DNA from: Candidatus Eiseniibacteriota bacterium
GTDB taxonomy: Bacteria; Eisenbacteria; RBG-16-71-46; CAZAMP01
DNA: 64,000 bases
Assembly (NCBI GenBank): GCA_965224245.1
Contig: OZ245046.1
Span: 3,424,001-3,488,000 of the forward strand
Direction: 5' to 3'
Under the pieces are notes generated by a model. That model was not told the origin of the DNA and made no database searches. It was given only the letters and a program-made list of their open reading frames with translations. Both the position numbers and the translations under genes were made by a program. Of this stretch, positions 354 to 46,690 are shown one piece after another. Each line of letters begins with the position of its first letter. The first letter of the stretch is position 1.

Positions 354-2114
354 TCAGCGCACGCGAACGAGCTTGCCCGTTCCGTCACGCACACGTCCGT
401 CGTCATCCGGCGGACCGGACACGCGATACGTGTACGAGCCGGCGGGCACCGGGCGGCCGTCGTCGGATCGGCCGTCCCAGCGGACCCCGGCGCCGGCGCC
501 GGCCCCGGCGTTCCCGACGAGCGTTCTCACGAGCCGGCCCGCCGCGTCGTAGATCCGCACGCGCGTCGGACCGGGCGTGGCGCCGAGCAGCGGGATGGTC
601 GTCGCGCCGCGGGTCGGATTCGGGACAGGTCCCATGATCCCCGAGCCGCTCGAGGATCCCGGCTCGGCCCCGATGATCGTGCACGTCGTCGCGTCCACGT
701 ACGCGAGGTCGTTCGTGACGGGCACGCCCGCGTCCGCGAGCACGGCCGTGGTGGCGTTCAGGTAGATCCGGAAGATGCTCGAGGGATCGTCCGGGTCCTG
801 CATCGGGTAGTCCGTGTATCCATTGTCCACGATCGCGGGCACCAGGATGTGGGCGGTGGCCCAGAGATCCAGCGCCACCGGATCCAGACCGGCCACGAGC
901 CGATCGAGCCGCGTCGCCTCCTCGTAGCTGCACCACGGCCCCCCCGACGGGTGGGCCAGCACGTAGATGGCATCGACGAGATTCAGATCGGGCCGGCGCA
1001 CGTCCGCCAGGAAACGCCCGAGGCCCCCGTAACGGACCGCCGCGTGTGTGTTCGTCGAGAGCTGCGTGGTCATCGTGCCCACGTGGTGCTTGACGCTGGC
1101 CGTGACGCCGTACACCGCACCGTGGCACTTCAGCACCGGTACGTTCAGAAACGTGAATGCGTCGTCCGAGTAGGTCTGGCTCCCCGGGTCGAAGACCCCG
1201 TGCTTCAGGCTGACGTAACGTCCCTGGGCCGTGCGGAACTTGGGATACGAGACACGAATCCGCGCGATCGCGTCGTACTCGCCCACCACGTAGCCGTCGG
1301 TGAGATCGCCGTCGGTGTACTCTGCGACCGAGGTGGAGCGGATCGCATCCCACAAGTACGTCGATACCGGCCAGCCGGCGTCGGCGAAGTCCGTGACGAC
1401 GTCCAGGGCCGACTGCGAGTGGTCCTCGGCGTTGCTCTCGGCCCAGTCGAACGTGCCCCGCCCCTGTGTGTTCTCCACCACGACGACCTCACCCGTGAAG
1501 CCGTCGGGGTGCTCGACGATGCGTGCGATCAGACCGCGAAGGACGTCGGTGTTGGTGCCGCCCCGCTCGGGCCATTGCTGGTTGATCTTGATCAGCACGA
1601 CGTCGTCGTACCCGACGATGCCCTCCGGAGCGCTCTCCGGCGCCCCCGAGCCCGATCGATAGAACGAGAGCCCACCGGCGTGCATGCAGGAGATCAGCTC
1701 GTCCACGCCCAGATGATGATCGCCCGCGGGCCCGCCGGCGTTCTCGATCGCGAACACCGACGCGCGATAGTCGGCGAACCGCGAGGACGTGTCGATCGCG
1801 GCGCGGGCCGAGACGCCCGGGCGAGACCCCTCGGGCGGGCCCGCGGACAGCACCAGCGCGAGGACGAGCGCACCCGCGGGGAGAAGGCGCGCCGCGCGCG
1901 AGCGTTCACCGGCGAGGGGATGCGCCCGGTCGATCGCGTGGAGCAGGGGGAGCCCGAGCACCAGCGTCGAGCTCGCGAGCGCCGCCCGCTGGCACGGATA
2001 GGCCAGACGCGACGGCTTCCGTCCCGAGCGCAGAAGAAGCCAGACGAGCGCACCGATCGCGAGGACGGTCGGATGACCGAGTAGTCGGCGGCATGAACGG
2101 ACGGCCCAGCGCAT
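354..2114 (-). CDS. DUF362-domain protein with C-terminal FlgD-Ig/T9SS-like domain
   Basis: VLIKIN...TNTDVL, NVPVLKCHG...GVTASVKHHVG, LVAGLDPVALD motifs; C-terminal PNP..IYDAAGRLVRTL..WDGR..GSY; GGAGGAG RBS before ATG 2114. Confidence 0.8.
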   Translation of the reverse strand: MRWAVRSCRRLLGHPTVLAIGALVWLLLRSGRKPSRLAYPCQRAALASSTLVLGLPLLHAIDRAHPLAGERSRAARLLPAGALVLALVLSAGPPEGSRPGVSARAAIDTSSRFADYRASVFAIENAGGPAGDHHLGVDELISCMHAGGLSFYRSGSGAPESAPEGIVGYDDVVLIKINQQWPERGGTNTDVLRGLIARIVEHPDGFTGEVVVVENTQGRGTFDWAESNAEDHSQSALDVVTDFADAGWPVSTYLWDAIRSTSVAEYTDGDLTDGYVVGEYDAIARIRVSYPKFRTAQGRYVSLKHGVFDPGSQTYSDDAFTFLNVPVLKCHGAVYGVTASVKHHVGTMTTQLSTNTHAAVRYGGLGRFLADVRRPDLNLVDAIYVLAHPSGGPWCSYEEATRLDRLVAGLDPVALDLWATAHILVPAIVDNGYTDYPMQDPDDPSSIFRIYLNATTAVLADAGVPVTNDLAYVDATTCTIIGAEPGSSSGSGIMGPVPNPTRGATTIPLLGATPGPTRVRIYDAAGRLVRTLVGNAGAGAGAGVRWDGRSDDGRPVPAGSYTYRVSGPPDDDGRVRDGTGKLVRVR

Positions 2115-2233
2115 GATGGCTCCTCCCGCGACGTCGGTGAAGATCGAGGTGCGAGGACCGCCGGGATCCCCGCGAGCGGCGAGCGCCGCACGGCCTGCCA
2201 GGAGCCCAGAGCACAGCACGATCCGGTGGGAAG

Positions 2234-2257
2234 CCGCCATGATGCAATTGCATCATG
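2234..2257 (-). promoter_or_regulatory. Palindromic operator-like site CATGATGCAATTGCATCATG (2238-2257) plus GCGG tail
   Basis: Perfect 20-bp AT-rich palindrome in intergenic DNA; related copies at 2712-2735 and 25631-25654. Confidence 0.65.
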
Positions 2258-16501: not shown

Positions 16502-16547
16502 TGTCCAGATTTTGGACGAACCCCGGGATGTCCGATCTGGGTACAAT
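16502..16547 (+). promoter_or_regulatory. Two TGTCC-N9-AC(A/G) boxes overlapping a TACAAT -10 element
   Basis: TGTCCAGATTTTGGACG (16502-16518) and TGTCCGATCTGGGTACA (16529-16545). Confidence 0.5.
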
Positions 16548-16582
16548 ATGTCGATGATTTTATTGAGACACGAGGAGAAGCC

Positions 16583-27323: not shown

Positions 27324-27459
27324 GTGCAGGCGCCGAGCCCCGTGCGTGCGCACCGTCACCGGGGAGTCGCACGAGCCGGGCATCCATCATCCATGTCGCC
27401 CTGCGCGGATGGGATTTGTAACGTACAGTTTACGATATGGGTCGCGGATGGGCTTGTAA
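27324..27459 (-). promoter_or_regulatory. Putative sigma54 promoter (GG-N10-GC) with upstream direct-repeat enhancer-like sites
   Basis: GGGCTCG-GCGC-CTGCA near 27325-27340; repeats cgcggatggg(at/c)ttgtaa at 27404-27421 and 27443-27459. Confidence 0.45.
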
Positions 27460-37436: not shown

Positions 37437-40028
37437 TCACTCGATCCGCACGACCTTCGACGTTCTGACGAGGCCCGGGGCGCTCAGCCGGAAGAAGTAC
37501 ACGCCGGCCGTCACCGGGCGCCCGACCTCGTCCTGCCCGTCCCACGTGACCGTGCCGCCGCCCGCCGGGGCGAGTCCATCGAGCACCGTGGCGATCCGGC
37601 GTCCCACGACGTCGTGCACGGTGACCCGGATGGGTCGCGCGGACTCGAGCGTGAAGTCCACGCGGGAGGCCCGCGTGAACGGGTTCGGGACCGCCGGTCC
37701 GAGGCCGATGGTGACCGACGCCGTCGGCTCGGACACCCCGACGGTGGCGGCGCCCGTCCCGCGCACCAGTGACACCCCGCGGTCCAGGTCGTACGGCGGG
37801 TACCCGATGACGGCGGCCACGTCGCCGACCCCGTCGCCGGTGAAGTCGCCGAAGGCGAGATCGGTCGGACTGAAGCCGACGCCGTAGCGCACGTGCGGCT
37901 CGAACGTGCCGTCGCCCCGGTTGCGGTAGAACGAGAAGTCGTTCGACCCGAAGTTCAGGAGCATCGCGTCCACGTCGCCGTCCGCGTCGGCGTCCCCGAC
38001 GGTGAGGCTCCGGACGCCGCCGATCGTCGAGTACGACGCGACGTAGCGGGAATACGGCTCGAACGTCCCGTCACCGTGACCGATCAGGACGCACATCGAC
38101 TGCTGGGGATCGCCGGCCATGTTGCAGGTCAGGAGATCGGCGAACCCGTCACCGTTCAGGTCGGCGCCGACCACGTCCTTCGGCCCCCAGTCGGTGACGA
38201 AGCGGGTGAACGGCCCGAACGTGCCGTCGCCGTTCCCCATCGAGACCGCGATCGCGTCGGCCTCGGTCCAGACGAGGTCGCGGTTGCCGTCCCCGTCGAG
38301 GTCGACGCCCCGGACGATCTCGGCCGCGATGAACGTCGGGTGGACGTACGGCGCCATGAACGTCCCGTCGCCCGCGTTCTCGCAGATGTAGATGAAGTTG
38401 CTGTCCCCGCCCCCGGCGCAGCCGAGATAGTCGGTCAGGAACACGTCGAGATCGCCGTCGTTGTCCATGTCGAACGCCTCGATGCCGCCGGTCCCGCAGG
38501 TGCCAACGGGCCAGGTCACCGTCGGACCGAACGTGCCGTCGCCGAGGTTCGTCCGCGTGTGGAAGTCGTACGGCGGCGACGTCGGGGCGGTGGCCCACAG
38601 AAGATCGACCATCCCGTCCCCGTCCAGGTCGCGCAGCTTCACGTCCAGCGCGGCGCGCGGCGCGGGATAGATCTCGATCGGCGCCAGCGTGCCGTCGCCC
38701 TGATTGCGGAGCACGCCGATCACGCCGCTGGTGGAGTAGTAGCCGGACGTCGCGACGTCCAGATCGCCGTCACCGTCGACGTCCGCGGCGTCCATGTGCT
38801 CGTGAAACGCACCGGCCGGTGTGGACGGCGGCGACCGGAACGCCCCGTCGCCGGGGTTGGGATGCACGGTGATCTCGAGCGAGTTGCGGCTGACGATGAC
38901 CACGTCGGCGTGGGCGTCCCCGTCCACGTCGGCGGTGTCGATGGCCACCGGGGAGTCGCCGGCCGGGAGCTCGGTGCCCGGCAGGAAGCCCCCCGAGCCG
39001 TCGCCGCGGGCGAAGGTCCAGCTCCCGGTGTCGATGTGCACCGTCATCAGATCGACCCATCCGTCACCGGTGACGTCCGTGACCGCCATGTCGACCGGTC
39101 CGGCCAGGAAGTCCACGATCGGGACGAACGACACGGGCGCGAACGTGCCGTCGCCCGCGTTGGCGAACGTGGCCACCGCGTAGTCGTCGGTGTCGATCTG
39201 GGATCGCGTGCTTCCGTAGAAGATGTCCAGGTCGCCGTCGTTGTCGGAGTCGGCGAGCCGCACGCACGGGAACACGTCGTTCACGCCGAACCCGGCGTTC
39301 AGCGCGACCGGAGCTGCGAAGGCACCTCCGGTGTTCATCAGCACCGCCACCTGCGTGCCCTCGCACGCGGCGACCACGTCCGGACGGTCGTCGCCGTCGA
39401 GGTCTCCGGCGACGAGCTTGTAGGGCGCGGGCAGCGCGGGGAACACCCGAGGGGGTCCGAAGCCGCCGCTGCCGTCGTTCAGAAGCAGCACGACGGTGCT
39501 TCCGAGGCCGATGCGGCCGTAGCCGGCGACCGCGAGGTCGACGTGTCCGTCGCCGTCGAAGTCCGCCGGGGCGATCCCCACCGGACCCTCCACGGCCGCG
39601 TAGTCCTGGCGGGGAGCGAACGTCCCGTCGCCCTGGTTCAGCAGCACCGAGATCGACGTACCCAGCATCGAGCTCCCGGTGTTGGCGGCGACGATGTCGC
39701 CGAAGCCGTCGCCGTCAACGTCGGCCACCTGGACCTCGAAGGAGCTGCCCTGGATCGTGTAGTAGACCGCCTCGGCGTAGCGCCCGTTCTCGTTGATCAG
39801 CACGCTCACGATGCGGGGAAAGAACCAGTGCGAGGTGACGGCGTCCGGGTCTCCATCCCCGTCGAGATCGGCGACGGCGCCCGCGTACGGGAAGTGCGCG
39901 TCGCCGTAGAAGCCGGTGTCGAAGCCGTACCACGTGTCGAAGCCGGGCTCGAACGCGAGGACGGCCGGCGCCAGGATCAGCGCCGCCATCACAGCCGGGC
40001 CGACGGCCGTTCGGCTCATCGTGCTCAT
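37437..40028 (-). CDS. Secreted FG-GAP repeat protein (14 repeats) with CTD
   Basis: Fourteen DxDGDGxxD repeats; signal peptide; GGAGG before ATG 40028. Confidence 0.9.
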   Translation of the reverse strand: MSTMSRTAVGPAVMAALILAPAVLAFEPGFDTWYGFDTGFYGDAHFPYAGAVADLDGDGDPDAVTSHWFFPRIVSVLINENGRYAEAVYYTIQGSSFEVQVADVDGDGFGDIVAANTGSSMLGTSISVLLNQGDGTFAPRQDYAAVEGPVGIAPADFDGDGHVDLAVAGYGRIGLGSTVVLLLNDGSGGFGPPRVFPALPAPYKLVAGDLDGDDRPDVVAACEGTQVAVLMNTGGAFAAPVALNAGFGVNDVFPCVRLADSDNDGDLDIFYGSTRSQIDTDDYAVATFANAGDGTFAPVSFVPIVDFLAGPVDMAVTDVTGDGWVDLMTVHIDTGSWTFARGDGSGGFLPGTELPAGDSPVAIDTADVDGDAHADVVIVSRNSLEITVHPNPGDGAFRSPPSTPAGAFHEHMDAADVDGDGDLDVATSGYYSTSGVIGVLRNQGDGTLAPIEIYPAPRAALDVKLRDLDGDGMVDLLWATAPTSPPYDFHTRTNLGDGTFGPTVTWPVGTCGTGGIEAFDMDNDGDLDVFLTDYLGCAGGGDSNFIYICENAGDGTFMAPYVHPTFIAAEIVRGVDLDGDGNRDLVWTEADAIAVSMGNGDGTFGPFTRFVTDWGPKDVVGADLNGDGFADLLTCNMAGDPQQSMCVLIGHGDGTFEPYSRYVASYSTIGGVRSLTVGDADADGDVDAMLLNFGSNDFSFYRNRGDGTFEPHVRYGVGFSPTDLAFGDFTGDGVGDVAAVIGYPPYDLDRGVSLVRGTGAATVGVSEPTASVTIGLGPAVPNPFTRASRVDFTLESARPIRVTVHDVVGRRIATVLDGLAPAGGGTVTWDGQDEVGRPVTAGVYFFRLSAPGLVRTSKVVRIE

Positions 40029-40163
40029 GCAATCCTCCAGGTTGCGCGCCCGTCCGACGTCCCATCGGACGAGATGCCTCGTTCCATCCGCCGTGCCTCC
40101 CGGCTGGTCACACGGTGTTCTGCTCTCGATTCTCTCCACGTCGACTCGTTGCGCGGTCGACCC

Positions 40164-41609
40164 TCATCGGAGGGTCCCCTCGCCCACGAGCGTCGCCTCC
40201 CCGGCGCGGACCGTGACCTGCGTCGAGGGGAACTCCAGATCCAGCGTGGCGCGGGTCGTCCCGCCCAGCAGCTCGTTGTTTCCGAACCCGAGCGTGACGG
40301 TGCCGGCCAGACATCCGTCGAGAACCGGCAGGCCGGTCGGTCCCGCTCCGGCCGGATTGATCCCGATGCGGACGCTGGCGAGAAGGTCGGCGTCCCCGGC
40401 GGCGTGCGCGATCGCGCCACGGATCAGCTCGGCGCCGCTGTCCCCGCGCACGTCGGTGATGCGGCCGTCGCGCAGCTCGAGCGCGACGTTCCAGACGTGA
40501 CGGCCGCCCACCAGTCCGTAGTCGGCGACCCACGTGCCGCTCGCCCTCGGGGTCGCCGGGAGGATCGTCAACGAGCCGGCCGGAAGGACGTCGAAGCCGA
40601 AGCCCGACCCCAGGTCCTCGCGGGAGACGACGCCGTCGTTCACGTGCGCCGACGCGAGGTCCACCGTCACCGTCAGGTCGGTGCCACGCGTGCAGCCGAG
40701 CGACAGTGACGCGCCGTCGCGGATCCGAGATCGAACCGACTGCGCGCGTTCGGCGAGCCGCTCGTAGTCGGTGTGTACGCACCGCCAGTACAGATCGATC
40801 GCCGCCTCGGGCGTGACGTTTCCGGTCTCGAAGTGCCCGCGGTGCGGCAGGTCGACCTCGAGGTAGCGTGCGCCCCGCTCCCGGATTCGTTGCTGCCAGC
40901 CCGAGACCGCGTCCAGCACGATCGGAAGCTTCTCGCGCTGCGCCCCGCTGGGCGGCGCGCCCTGCGGCATGTGGGTGCTGATGAAGAGCACCGCGTCCAG
41001 GGTCCCGTCCAGATGCGCGTCCAGGAACGGGAGCCGCGCCAGCGACGCGGCATCGTGACGATCGAGGGTCCGGAGAACGACGTTGCGCGACCACAGCTTC
41101 GGTCGCGGTCGCGCTCCGAGTGCCTCGATCTCGACGACGCACGCCTCGGCGAGCTCGAGCCCCATGGGGCCGAACATCACGAGGACGGTCTCGTCCTCGT
41201 GCACGCCGAGACACGTCGCCACGACGGTGCGCGCGACCTCTCCCAGGTCGATGTCGAGGATCTCCTTGCGACGCCAGTCCAGGAACGCCGCCTCGGCCGA
41301 CTGCCGGAGCGCGGCCGACGTGCTGCCGTCACCACAGGCCAGTGCCGGATCCATCAGGAAGTTGCGCGCCACCGCGCGGTAGTAGCGCTCCTCGCGACGC
41401 CGCTTGCGGCCCGTTCCCACGACCTCGAGGAGACCGTGCTCGAGAAGCTGCCGGACGTGGTAGTGAGCGCGGTTGGCGGGCATCTCGAGCTTCCTGGCGA
41501 CCCCGGTGACGGTCAGGGGCTCGCGCGTCAGGAGGTTCAGCATTCGAAGCCGCTCCTCGCGCGCGATCGCCCAGATCTGCGACATGCGCAGGAGCTCGAA
41601 GTCCTTCAT
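40164..41609 (-). CDS. ArsR-type winged HTH fused to degenerate M29 aminopeptidase-like domain
   Basis: RLRMLNLL..LTVTGVARKL..HYHVRQLLEHGLLEV..ERYYRA; GTDLTV, LELRDGRI, IGIN, GTV.LGFGNN. Confidence 0.8.
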   Translation of the reverse strand: MKDFELLRMSQIWAIAREERLRMLNLLTREPLTVTGVARKLEMPANRAHYHVRQLLEHGLLEVVGTGRKRRREERYYRAVARNFLMDPALACGDGSTSAALRQSAEAAFLDWRRKEILDIDLGEVARTVVATCLGVHEDETVLVMFGPMGLELAEACVVEIEALGARPRPKLWSRNVVLRTLDRHDAASLARLPFLDAHLDGTLDAVLFISTHMPQGAPPSGAQREKLPIVLDAVSGWQQRIRERGARYLEVDLPHRGHFETGNVTPEAAIDLYWRCVHTDYERLAERAQSVRSRIRDGASLSLGCTRGTDLTVTVDLASAHVNDGVVSREDLGSGFGFDVLPAGSLTILPATPRASGTWVADYGLVGGRHVWNVALELRDGRITDVRGDSGAELIRGAIAHAAGDADLLASVRIGINPAGAGPTGLPVLDGCLAGTVTLGFGNNELLGGTTRATLDLEFPSTQVTVRAGEATLVGEGTLR

Positions 41610-41646
41610 GGCGATCGTCTCTTCCGTCCCGCCCGGCGGTCCGGTA

Positions 41647-41666
41647 TATGCAATTTTTCTTGCATA
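41647..41666. promoter_or_regulatory. Perfect inverted repeat TATGCAA-N6-TTGCATA, likely autoregulatory operator
   Basis: AT-rich palindrome 38 bp upstream of the HTH gene start. Confidence 0.7.
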
Positions 41667-42832
41667 ACTCCTCAAAACAAAGACGGCGGCGGACGGCCCG
41701 CCTCCGAGGGTCCGATCATCGGGCCTGCGCGCCCCGCGCGCAATCGCGGGTTCCCCGAACCGGCCGCGCGGGCGGGCCACCTCTCGTTCGAGAGTGGGTC
41801 CCCGGACCGCGCTGATACCCGGAGCCGGGCATTTTCCTCGGACCGCGCGCGCCCCGACGGGGCCGGCTCGGTCAGGTGCTCCAGCTCTGCAGGAGCTCCA
41901 TGTAGTTCCCGCGCTCGTACGCGCCCGGATCCGGGGAGCGGCTCAGGTTCATGCTCCCCTGCATCTGCCGCAGCGACTCGTACTCGTGCGCCTCGAGCCA
42001 CGTCGTGAGCTCGGACTTGACCGCGCTCAGGTGATCGGGCCCCCGACGCAGCAACGACGACACCATCTGGACCGCGTGCGCCCCGCACATGATCGACTTG
42101 ACGACGTCGGCGCTGGAGTGGACGCCCCCGGTGATCGCCAGTGAGAGCTCGGTCTGCTCCGAGAGAATGGCCAGCCAGCGAAGTCGCAGGAGCAGCTCGT
42201 CGGACGTGCTGAGTCGTAGCGATCGCGTGACCGTCAGCTCCTCGATGTCGAGGTCGGGCTGGTAGAAGCGATTGAAGACGACGAGCCCCGCGGCGCCGGC
42301 GCGGAACAGCTCCCGCGAGAGGTGCGGCAGCGCGGTGAAGAACGGCGAGATCTTCACCGCGATGGGAATGTGAATCTGCGCGCTCGTCGCGTGCACCATC
42401 TGCACCAGCCGGCGCTCGATGCTCGCGGCGTCCTCGGCGGGATCGGTGGCCAGGAAGTACACGTTCAGCTCGAGCGCGTCGGCTCCGGCCTCGGCGAGCT
42501 GCTTGGCGAAGCGCAGCCATCCCCCCATGCTGGTGCCGTTGAGCGAGGCGATCACCGGGACGTCCACCGCGTCCTTCACCCGGCGCAGGTGCGCGAGGTA
42601 CTCGTCGATGCCCATCGCGAACGTGGGCGTGGACGGGAAGAAGCTCATCGCCTCGGCGAAACCCTCGCTGTGGCTGTCGAGGTGGGCGAGCGCGCCGAGC
42701 TGGTCGGCCACGATCTGCTCCTCGAACAGCGACCGCAACACGATGGCGCCCGCGCCGGCGTCCTCGAGCGCCCGCACCGAGTCCAGCTCGTCGGCCAGCG
42801 GGGACGCGCCGGGCATCAGCGGGTTTTCGAGC

Positions 42833-46507
<3,675 letters not shown>

Positions 46508-46690
46508 GACGATGTCCCAGGCGAGAGGTTCGGGGTCGAGGGCGGGCACCTCGGAGGGCTGTATGTTGGAGGTCCGTGTCCCAAGGGGGGCTCGGATCCG
46601 AGATGCCCGCAGCGTTCGCACCGGACAAGACTCGGTGATCGAGTCCCCCGGAACCATAAGGGGTTTCCGTAGCGGAAGTTGCGAGAACCG

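Follow-up and report, generated by a model that had tools for sequence, protein, structure and literature searches.

An ArsR-type winged helix-turn-helix protein on an M29 peptidase fold without its metal ligands, and a candidate operator, in Candidatus Eiseniibacteriota

The DNA considered here is a 64,000-nucleotide window (the whole stretch that was analysed) of contig OZ245046.1 from Candidatus Eiseniibacteriota bacterium (assembly GCA_965224245.1, positions 3,424,001 to 3,488,000 of the forward strand), and its subject is a minus-strand gene, P0001, whose product joins a DNA-binding domain of the ArsR type to a large body with the fold of the M29 aminopeptidases. An entry in the protein collection is identical to P0001 and has the same length of 481 amino acids. 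A longer open reading frame beginning with a GTG codon at 41780 was rejected as the gene start, since it crosses the palindrome that precedes the gene and its extra residues have no counterpart in relatives. The gene, the parts of its product and the palindrome are as follows, in window coordinates.

40164..41609, minus strand: regulator gene P0001, from the ATG at 41609 to the stop codon at 40164-40166, 481 amino acids (open reading frame and translation, Pfam)
41352..41609, minus strand: ArsR-type winged helix-turn-helix (HTH) domain, residues 1-86 (HTH_20 and HTH_5, PDB profile, structural model)
41259..41348, minus strand: linker between the HTH and the M29 body, residues 88-117, including the long helix 95-117 (structural model)
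40167..41258, minus strand: full-length M29-fold body without metal ligands, residues 118-481 (Foldseek, hhalign)
41647-41666, no strand assigned: perfect inverted repeat TATGCAA-N6-TTGCATA, candidate operator, TATGCAATTTTTCTTGCATA

The DNA-binding part is recognised at the level of both sequence and structure. Pfam places HTH_20 at residues 18-64 (E 1.2e-10, 41.6 bits, cut-off 27) and also reports HTH_5/ArsR (23.7 bits, cut-off 22), and the PDB profile matches of this part comprise PH1932 (1uly, E 6e-11), ArsR, SmtB, CzrA, NolR and HlyU; Foldseek likewise returns PH1932 and ArsR/SmtB proteins for the HTH part. An AlphaFold2 model of P0001, with 32 relatives as input, has a mean predicted local distance difference test score (pLDDT) of 89.6 and a predicted template modelling score (pTM) of 0.78. 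In it, residues 1-86 form a winged HTH and residues 95-117 a long helix, and a large alpha/beta body spans residues 122-481. Within the winged HTH the model has helices at residues 9-15, 18-29, 34-40 and 45-57 and wing strands at 61-66 and 75-86. The precomputed domain label PF26233 is carried by P0001 and by several of its relatives.

A metal-sensing CxC motif in helix 3 is a trait of ArsR/SmtB proteins. The CxC motif is absent from residues 1-117 of P0001, where C91 is the single cysteine, and the NCBIfam model for metalloregulators of the ArsR/SmtB type (NF033788) gives 28.2 bits, below its cut-off of 55. Residues 8-105 find their best sequence matches in the archaeal ArsR-like proteins PH1932 (1uly/2cwe) and Phr (2p4w), which carry a helical extension at the C-terminus (E 6e-11 with the family profile), the likeness taking in the winged HTH and the segment that follows the wing; residues 88-117 of P0001 align to this post-wing segment of PH1932, and residues 88-116 fall within the predicted dimer interface. 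These archaeal proteins are about 190-200 amino acids long with a short helical dimerisation region, whereas P0001 has a 360-residue enzyme-fold body in its place.

That body is a complete M29 fold. Pfam assigns it to Peptidase_M29 (PF02073) at 35.2 bits (cut-off 27, E 8.1e-9), and in a Foldseek comparison with the PDB the best matches, which span 397-422 columns, are PepS (4icr, 4ics and 4icq, E about 1e-18, the best 9e-19), followed by AmpS (1zjc, E 1.6e-17), NicX (7cn3, E 2.4e-17) and AmpT (2ayi, E 4.8e-16). The crocagin proteins CgnE and CgnB also match, at about 1e-6. With PepS, AmpS and AmpT the alignments extend over 411-422 columns at 14-17% identity, and P0001 resembles these enzymes in its two-subdomain fold (about 410-420 columns, template modelling (TM) score normalised to the target 0.57-0.64); a dimer through the N-terminal subdomain is predicted for it. 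It is unlike them in lacking all six metal ligands, in the low identity and in the added winged HTH and long helix, and its sequence gives no reason to expect aminopeptidase activity. A profile comparison by hhalign of the fused family with 27 ligand-bearing relatives gave a probability of 100% (E 2e-52) over 367 columns.

Because direct alignments to the solved peptidases stop before the second ligand, the ligand columns were placed through ligand-bearing standalone relatives. A body-only profile searched against 1.84 billion representative proteins returned 2645 matches at E <= 1e-3 (935 at <= 1e-10 and 140 at <= 1e-30), and standalone proteins of 355-430 amino acids make up the majority of the best 150. 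The ligand alignment was made from the listed matches of 340-440 amino acids, with shorter fragments and longer multi-domain proteins excluded, and holds 49 fused and 99 standalone proteins. Seven shared columns read E-E-D-E-H-H-D in 25 of the 99 standalone proteins, and two more that deviate solely at the Asp bring the ligand-bearing set to 27, for which the pattern is E-E-(D/E/N)E-H-H-D. In three members of this set (P0057, P0058 and P0059) the match to the Pfam M29 model extends over its whole length at 88-125 bits (P0057, 94 bits), and the LPAGE, GE and DE......H motifs of P0057 pair with PTEE, GE and DEN..H of AmpT 2ayi. The published ligands of AmpS are E253, E319 (bridging), H348, H381 and D383, within the pattern 'EEHYHD' (PMC7023490), and those of CgnB are Glu161, Glu252, Glu274, His280, His291 and Asp293, a list that also includes the Glu of the DE motif (PMC10070186).

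At the six ligand columns P0001 has S346, S412, G432, T439, D457 and E459, and thus keeps none of the six. The codons concerned are the following.

40572..40574, minus strand: codon S346, site of the first ligand Glu (LPAG-E in M29; PTEE in AmpT and PepS)
40374..40376, minus strand: codon S412, site of the bridging Glu ('GE' motif; the His of HX52HXD in NicX/Hpo)
40293..40316, minus strand: codons G432 to T439, site of the Glu and His of 'DE......H'
40233..40241, minus strand: codons D457-L-E459, site of the HxD ligand pair, confirmed on the DNA

The preliminary description of this locus had been made from the sequence by eye, and its structural claims are borne out. The ArsR-like winged HTH joined to a full-length aminopeptidase-like body is recovered by Pfam, Foldseek and hhalign; the motifs LPAGS, LASV, LDGCLAGTVT and TLDLE had been correctly placed, the same segments being paired by hhalign with ligand-bearing motifs of the consensus (LPAGS with LPaGE, LLASV with IaELG, LDGCLAGTVT with LDEKiaGTvH and TLDLE with LHWDL); and essentially all M29 ligands are indeed substituted. 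Motifs of the M29 family that do not supply ligands (LPAG, SDG, IGxNP and GG) are retained. These data support P0001 as an ArsR-type winged HTH fused to a complete M29 fold without the canonical metal ligands, and, its body having no metal centre, P0001 is therefore not expected to act as a metallo-aminopeptidase.

A protein that has lost one set of ligands could still be an enzyme with a non-canonical active site, in which case P0001 would be a bifunctional enzyme-repressor. The M29 fold does host non-peptidase chemistry: the NicX/Hpo 2,5-dihydroxypyridine dioxygenases (7cn3) have an M29-like fold and are not peptidases, NicX is among the best structural matches of P0001 (TM normalised to the target 0.66-0.69), and a profile alignment with it covers about 190 residues, the C-terminal motifs among them. 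In addition, the carboxylates D431, D457 and E459 are close in the P0001 sequence and could in principle hold a cation. The published iron motif of Hpo/NicX is HX52HXD (PMC3831237). This triad maps to S412, D457 and E459, so that P0001 has none of the three NicX-type ligands, as it has none of the six M29 ligands, and is therefore not a NicX-type enzyme; NicX and Hpo also have no HTH. Nor are the two acidic residues conserved in the clade of 44 fused proteins to which P0001 belongs, where the D457 column holds D in 19 and N in 16 and the E459 column S in 10, R in 7 and many others, and no alternative His or Cys cluster in the clade reaches at least 90% conservation. Retained catalysis in P0001 is thus very improbable, although a second group of HTH-M29 proteins (P0056, P0079 and P0114) keeps three or four of the six ligands.

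The relatives of P0001 place this loss in context. A word-indexed protein search returned 35 clusters at E <= 1e-3, with identity down to 38%, and a precomputed HTH family is recorded on 31 of them; the exceptions are P0007 (in which the HTH is visible in the alignment), P0010, and the short fragments P0032 and P0033. The closest relatives (P0002-P0012) are 49-67% identical and mostly metagenomic, and the named relatives come from metagenome-assembled genomes of Candidatus Eisenbacteria and Planctomycetes. A look-alike cluster in the ESM Atlas (score 0.98) has 388 members, with PF02073 on 90% and HTH_20 on 55%. In an unrooted FastTree phylogeny of 150 bodies, 44 of the 51 fused proteins form one clade (support 0.989) together with P0052, a 370-residue match without a Pfam hit that is read as truncated. 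Homologues share the ligand loss: 38 of the 44 clade members keep none of the six ligands and the other six keep one.

Six other fused proteins (P0056, P0079, P0101, P0103, P0114 and P0130) group weakly (0.575) with ligand-bearing enzymes. The partial ligand sets among them read EESHNP in P0056, EETHHP in P0079 and EEHHTS in P0114, with Pfam M29 scores of 70-116 bits, and the P0056 cluster contains a RefSeq protein from Zhaonella formicivorans (P0181, WP_227765532.1) that is named 'aminopeptidase'. Fusions of this type may be enzyme-repressors or intermediates. The existence of fusions with and without ligands implies that the HTH-M29 architecture predates the ligand loss, is spread more widely than it, or has arisen twice; as the tree is unrooted and the second grouping weak, no choice is made here on the order of fusion and loss. 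A further protein, P0037 (583 amino acids), has a partial N-terminal HTH_20, an M29-like body and a C-terminal AraC-type HTH_18, and is either another fusion or a merged gene call.

Ligand loss is also common outside the fusions, since 72 of the 99 close standalone M29-like proteins (e.g. P0064, P0066, P0069, P0072, P0083 and P0086) are without the full ligand set, and non-catalytic M29-fold proteins may thus far outnumber the two crocagin examples. Many of the standalone ligand-poor relatives keep the first Glu alone, in patterns such as E-x-x-W/Y-T-G/S, and have signal-peptide or lipoprotein-like N-termini. In P0062 and P0150, TPR repeats are added to the M29-like body.

The body and the linker are both implicated in a predicted homodimer. 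A model with two copies of P0001 scored 0.80, compared with 0.00 for the best of three controls, and passes a mark that 20 of 30 solved same-chain pairs and 1 of 23 solved single-chain proteins also reach. Contact agreement between runs was at least 98%, and partner pLDDT at least 86. The interface is symmetric and draws on residues 4-28 (helix 1 of the HTH), 82-116 and 141-203 (in the N-terminal subdomain of the body). Because ArsR-type and M29 dimers have already been solved, this pass may reflect likeness to them rather than amount to proof; the predicted two-fold dimer fits the reading of the palindrome as a symmetric binding site.

What the M29 body might contribute beyond dimerisation can be approached through CgnB and CgnE of crocagin biosynthesis (6zsv, 6zsu), which are also M29-derived and match P0001 with Foldseek E values of 6e-7 to 1e-6. 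According to their published description, CgnB and CgnE bind peptides without catalysis, the metal site of CgnE is lost and binds no metal, and both proteins are monomers without an extra domain, from which the larger part of the N-terminal dimerisation region is missing (PMC10070186). Unlike them, P0001 keeps the N-terminal subdomain, has a DNA-binding domain and is a predicted dimer, and it matches them less well than it does the peptidases (TM normalised to the target 0.48-0.52). The case for a sensor is an analogy with these two proteins. Within the fused clade the six former ligand columns are variable (top residue 23-80%), and the apparent enrichment of conserved positions near them (11 of 47, against 33 of 311 elsewhere, p = 0.017) comes through Gly and Pro alone; when these are removed, 4 conserved positions near the ligand columns against 19 show no enrichment (p = 0.36). 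Neither this variability nor the Gly/Pro origin of the enrichment points to a single common ligand at the former metal site. Because the former ligand columns vary in this way, effector sensing by the M29 body, however conceivable by analogy, is the weakest link of the interpretation, and the peptide or amino-acid sensor put forward in the preliminary description finds no support in the present analyses.

The same observations speak for another role, in which the M29-like body is solely a dimerisation element and scaffold of a DNA-binding regulator or architectural protein, no small-molecule or peptide effector exists, and any control is exerted through protein abundance or a protein partner. 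The predicted interface is in keeping with such a role, as it uses residues 141-203, which include part of a WSR motif (173-175) that is invariant in the clade. However, all 44 clade members retain the entire body, some 360 residues long, whereas smaller ArsR-type proteins such as PH1932 need just a few helices to dimerise. The polar body residues that are at least 90% conserved also include, besides R175, a set that lies off the interface (Q224, R245, E268, D332, N418, D431, N445 and T455), and the non-catalytic peptide binding of the crocagin proteins provides a precedent for a further function. A pure scaffold is for these reasons regarded as unlikely.

With regard to the DNA that P0001 might bind, the palindrome at 41647-41666 is perfect and present as the preliminary description had reported, at a distance of 37 nucleotides from the regulator ATG rather than the 38 given there. 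It is the sole match in the window to TATGCAA-N6-TTGCATA at <= 2 mismatches, and none of 100 shuffles had a match. At <= 3 mismatches the 64-kb window holds no second copy (one match, the site itself, with 3.73 expected by chance), and hence no further regulon member can be named from the window. Perfect 7-N6-7 inverted repeats are not rare here, 15 being present in the window, almost all of them GC-rich; the palindrome stands out from these generic repeats because it is AT-rich (75% in a window of 70% GC), lies between genes and is conserved in relatives. After merging, the 64 kb holds four windows in which 20 nucleotides reach at least 70% AT, and as two of these overlap at the candidate operator they represent three spots. 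The remaining AT-rich spots are at 16541-16573 and 27413-27438. The palindrome lies directly after a terminator-like hairpin.

41675..41702, minus strand: terminator-like GC hairpin (41702-41685) with a T-rich tail, ending the upstream DHODH-like gene; the only such site in 39900-42000

A consensus scan of 39900-42000 found no sigma-70-type promoter, so that the palindrome is unplaced relative to a promoter, and inspection by eye for other promoter types gave none; 39800-42100 has no match to Rfam families. Sequences related to the half-sites occur at two other places in the window. A perfect 20-bp palindrome at 2238-2257, CATGATGCAATTGCATCATG, has ATGCAA/TTGCAT half-sites with no spacer, and spans both the ATG of a secreted-protein gene with DUF362 and FlgD_ig domains (354..2240, minus strand) and that of a divergent 186-residue open reading frame (no Pfam). 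At 40027-40047, ATGCAA-N9-TTGCGC lies over the Shine-Dalgarno sequence (GGAGGA) and start codon of the gene that follows the regulator; it is degenerate, has the wrong spacing and is probably due to chance. Across the 64 kb the hexamer TTGCAT is found twice and ATGCAA five times.

Comparison with homologous loci was used to judge whether the palindrome belongs to the regulator. Twelve loci were fetched from genome contigs after a scan with a 19-sequence alignment; nine are full-length (L001-L009), and three HTH-only loci were unused. In L001, L002, L004, L006, L007 and L008 the sequence TTTCAG-N6-YTGAAA occurs upstream of the regulator, once in each and nowhere else in the 12 loci, 52-65 nucleotides before a conserved (K/R/N)DF start motif, and the L006 version is perfect (CTTTCAG-N6-CTGAAAG). 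L009 has TACACAA-N6-TGGTGTA 97 nucleotides upstream. An AT-rich inverted repeat is thus found at the same place in 7 of 9 homologous loci, or in 8 of 10 genes with that of the window. L003 has a degenerate repeat only, about 150 nucleotides upstream, and L005 (Phycisphaerales) is without an upstream repeat. Under a strict definition (7-N6-7, <= 1 mismatch, >= 60% AT) there are 6 repeats in 156,785 nucleotides, and four of them were observed in the ten 111-nucleotide upstream windows, where 0.014 are expected. All versions have in common an AT-rich spacer and a CA-N8-TG core. The half-sites themselves differ, being ATGCA in the window, TTTCA in most relatives and ACACA in L009. L009 combines the most different repeat with the most different recognition helix (PTQQANYH, against PANRAHYH). 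The recognition helices of the window (ANRAHYHVRQ) and of the TTTCA group (ANRAHYHL[QKR]R) are nearly the same despite their different half-sites, which leaves the change of specificity in the window unexplained. The preliminary description's view of the palindrome as the protein's own operator is accordingly supported by comparison, through a repeat of equal architecture at the same place in the relatives, and the half-site sequence is the part that is not shared.

The discordance between helix and half-site is one ground for supposing that the palindrome is bound by some other factor, belongs to the promoter or to the transcript's 5' end, or arose by chance, with P0001 acting elsewhere in the genome. 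The 15 perfect repeats of the window and the failure of the scan to place a promoter point in the same direction, and the palindrome at 2238-2257, with its ATGCAA/TTGCAT half-sites, could point to another hexamer-binding factor. Against this, position and architecture are conserved in 8 of 10 genes, and the background of strict repeats is very low. Moreover, ArsR-type regulators normally autoregulate through a nearby inverted repeat. Assignment of the palindrome to something other than P0001 is considered quite improbable.

The gene that follows the regulator is a possible target.

37437..40028, minus strand: secreted FG-GAP repeat protein, 863 amino acids, with a C-terminal FlgD_ig / type IX secretion system (T9SS) sorting-like domain (Pfam)
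40029..40163, minus strand: 135-nucleotide gap between the regulator stop codon and the FG-GAP gene

The protein has FG-GAP_3 (E 9e-75) and FlgD_ig (E 3e-7), and Por_Secre_tail at 22.1 bits falls just below its cut-off of 23. The gap at 40029-40163 has no terminator-like site and no unusual RNA structure (fold z-score -0.54). In six relatives (L001, L002, L004, L006, L007 and L008) an orthologous secreted protein of about 800 amino acids, 44-79% identical between loci, directly follows the regulator, and in L001, L002 and L006 the two genes overlap in an ATGA stop/start. After a propeller-like region, the C-termini in L002, L004, L006 and L008 have a FlgD_ig and/or a T9SS-sorting-like domain (NCBIfam, near cut-off). 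The FG-GAP gene of the window was rejected as an orthologue of this downstream gene, since only the C-terminal 115 or so amino acids match (30-35%). At 7 of 10 loci, nevertheless, the gene next to the regulator encodes a large secreted propeller protein that has a sorting domain, a recurrence that is perhaps partly due to chance, as such secreted proteins seem frequent in these genomes. Control of the co-oriented FG-GAP gene, which the preliminary description had raised, is thus plausible from the gap without a terminator and from the direct successor gene of the six relatives, though the latter is not an orthologue.

From these elements a mechanism can be proposed in which P0001 is, on balance, probably a dimeric one-component regulator that acts on its own gene and whose pseudo-peptidase domain serves for effector response or dimerisation. 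Two copies would pair through HTH helix 1, the long helix and the M29 N-terminal subdomain, and the predicted dimer would set its two recognition helices on the half-sites of the palindrome at 41647-41666. Since this palindrome lies between the upstream terminator and the regulator ATG, P0001 most likely governs transcription of its own gene, and the effect would presumably be repression, which is usual for ArsR-type proteins. Read-through from the regulator gene may bring the secreted FG-GAP / sorting-domain protein under the same control. The pseudo-peptidase body would act as a dimerisation and effector module, and the most likely effector, if one exists, would be a peptide or an amino-group-bearing small molecule that alters occupancy of the operator. 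Several of the observations given above weigh against this proposal: the three carboxylates that could hold a cation, the variable ligand columns and the absence of enrichment around them once Gly and Pro are set aside, the 15 perfect repeats in the window, the unplaced promoter, the loci L003 and L005, the divergent half-site of the window beside a nearly identical recognition helix, and the non-orthologous downstream gene. Overall, the structural observation of the preliminary description is confirmed, and its operator and downstream control are supported by comparison or plausible.

A bolder extension would make the HTH-M29 proteins an undescribed regulator family, in which the metal-free cleft reads peptide N-termini or amino acids and switches secreted beta-propeller genes in Eisenbacteria-like bacteria, and in which the Firmicutes-like sister group with a partial metal site (e.g. 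Zhaonella formicivorans) represents an intermediate enzyme-repressor stage; in this full form the idea is doubtful. Regulators built on enzyme folds (MocR/GabR, PurR, ROK and others) are a known kind, and the HTH-M29 regulator is a variant on enzyme-fold regulators, not a new principle. P0001 resembles its functional analogues MocR/GabR/PdxR, PurR and similar regulators in combining a winged HTH with an enzyme-derived domain that is dimeric and acts as effector module, for P0001 a prediction and a proposal respectively. These regulators have an aminotransferase or phosphoribosyltransferase fold with the cofactor or ligand site retained, whereas in P0001 the metal site is gone; GabR, PdxR and PurR are low in the Foldseek list, probably via the HTH, with TM scores of 0.12-0.13.

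No report of an HTH-M29 fusion or of an M29 pseudoenzyme regulator was found in the full-text literature, subscription journals lying outside the scope of that search, and source databases name HTH-M29 proteins 'aminopeptidase' or 'helix-turn-helix domain-containing protein'. If the proposed reading is true, about 35 clusters at 90% identity and the 388-member Atlas cluster are mis-annotated as peptidases. The locus would then be a clear example of a pseudoenzyme put to regulatory use, for which a candidate operator and a candidate target gene are at hand, and would open a way into gene regulation in the hardly studied Candidatus Eisenbacteria.

Some minor features of the neighbouring genes may be added. 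Residues 85-120 of the FG-GAP protein give a weak match to TcdB_toxin_midN (28.6 bits, cut-off 24.8), which is read as repeat likeness and not as a toxin. Among the relatives, the gene for the secreted protein of about 800 amino acids is split into three overlapping open reading frames in L008 (7397-9894) and into two in L006 (2676-5165), possibly by frameshift or assembly error. Upstream of the regulator and co-oriented with it, at 41872-46657 on the minus strand, lie a pyruvate:ferredoxin oxidoreductase (POR_N, POR, EKR, Fer4 and TPP_enzyme_C) and then a DHODH-like gene (DHO_dh, E 4e-16), both of which are parted from the regulator by the terminator-like hairpin.

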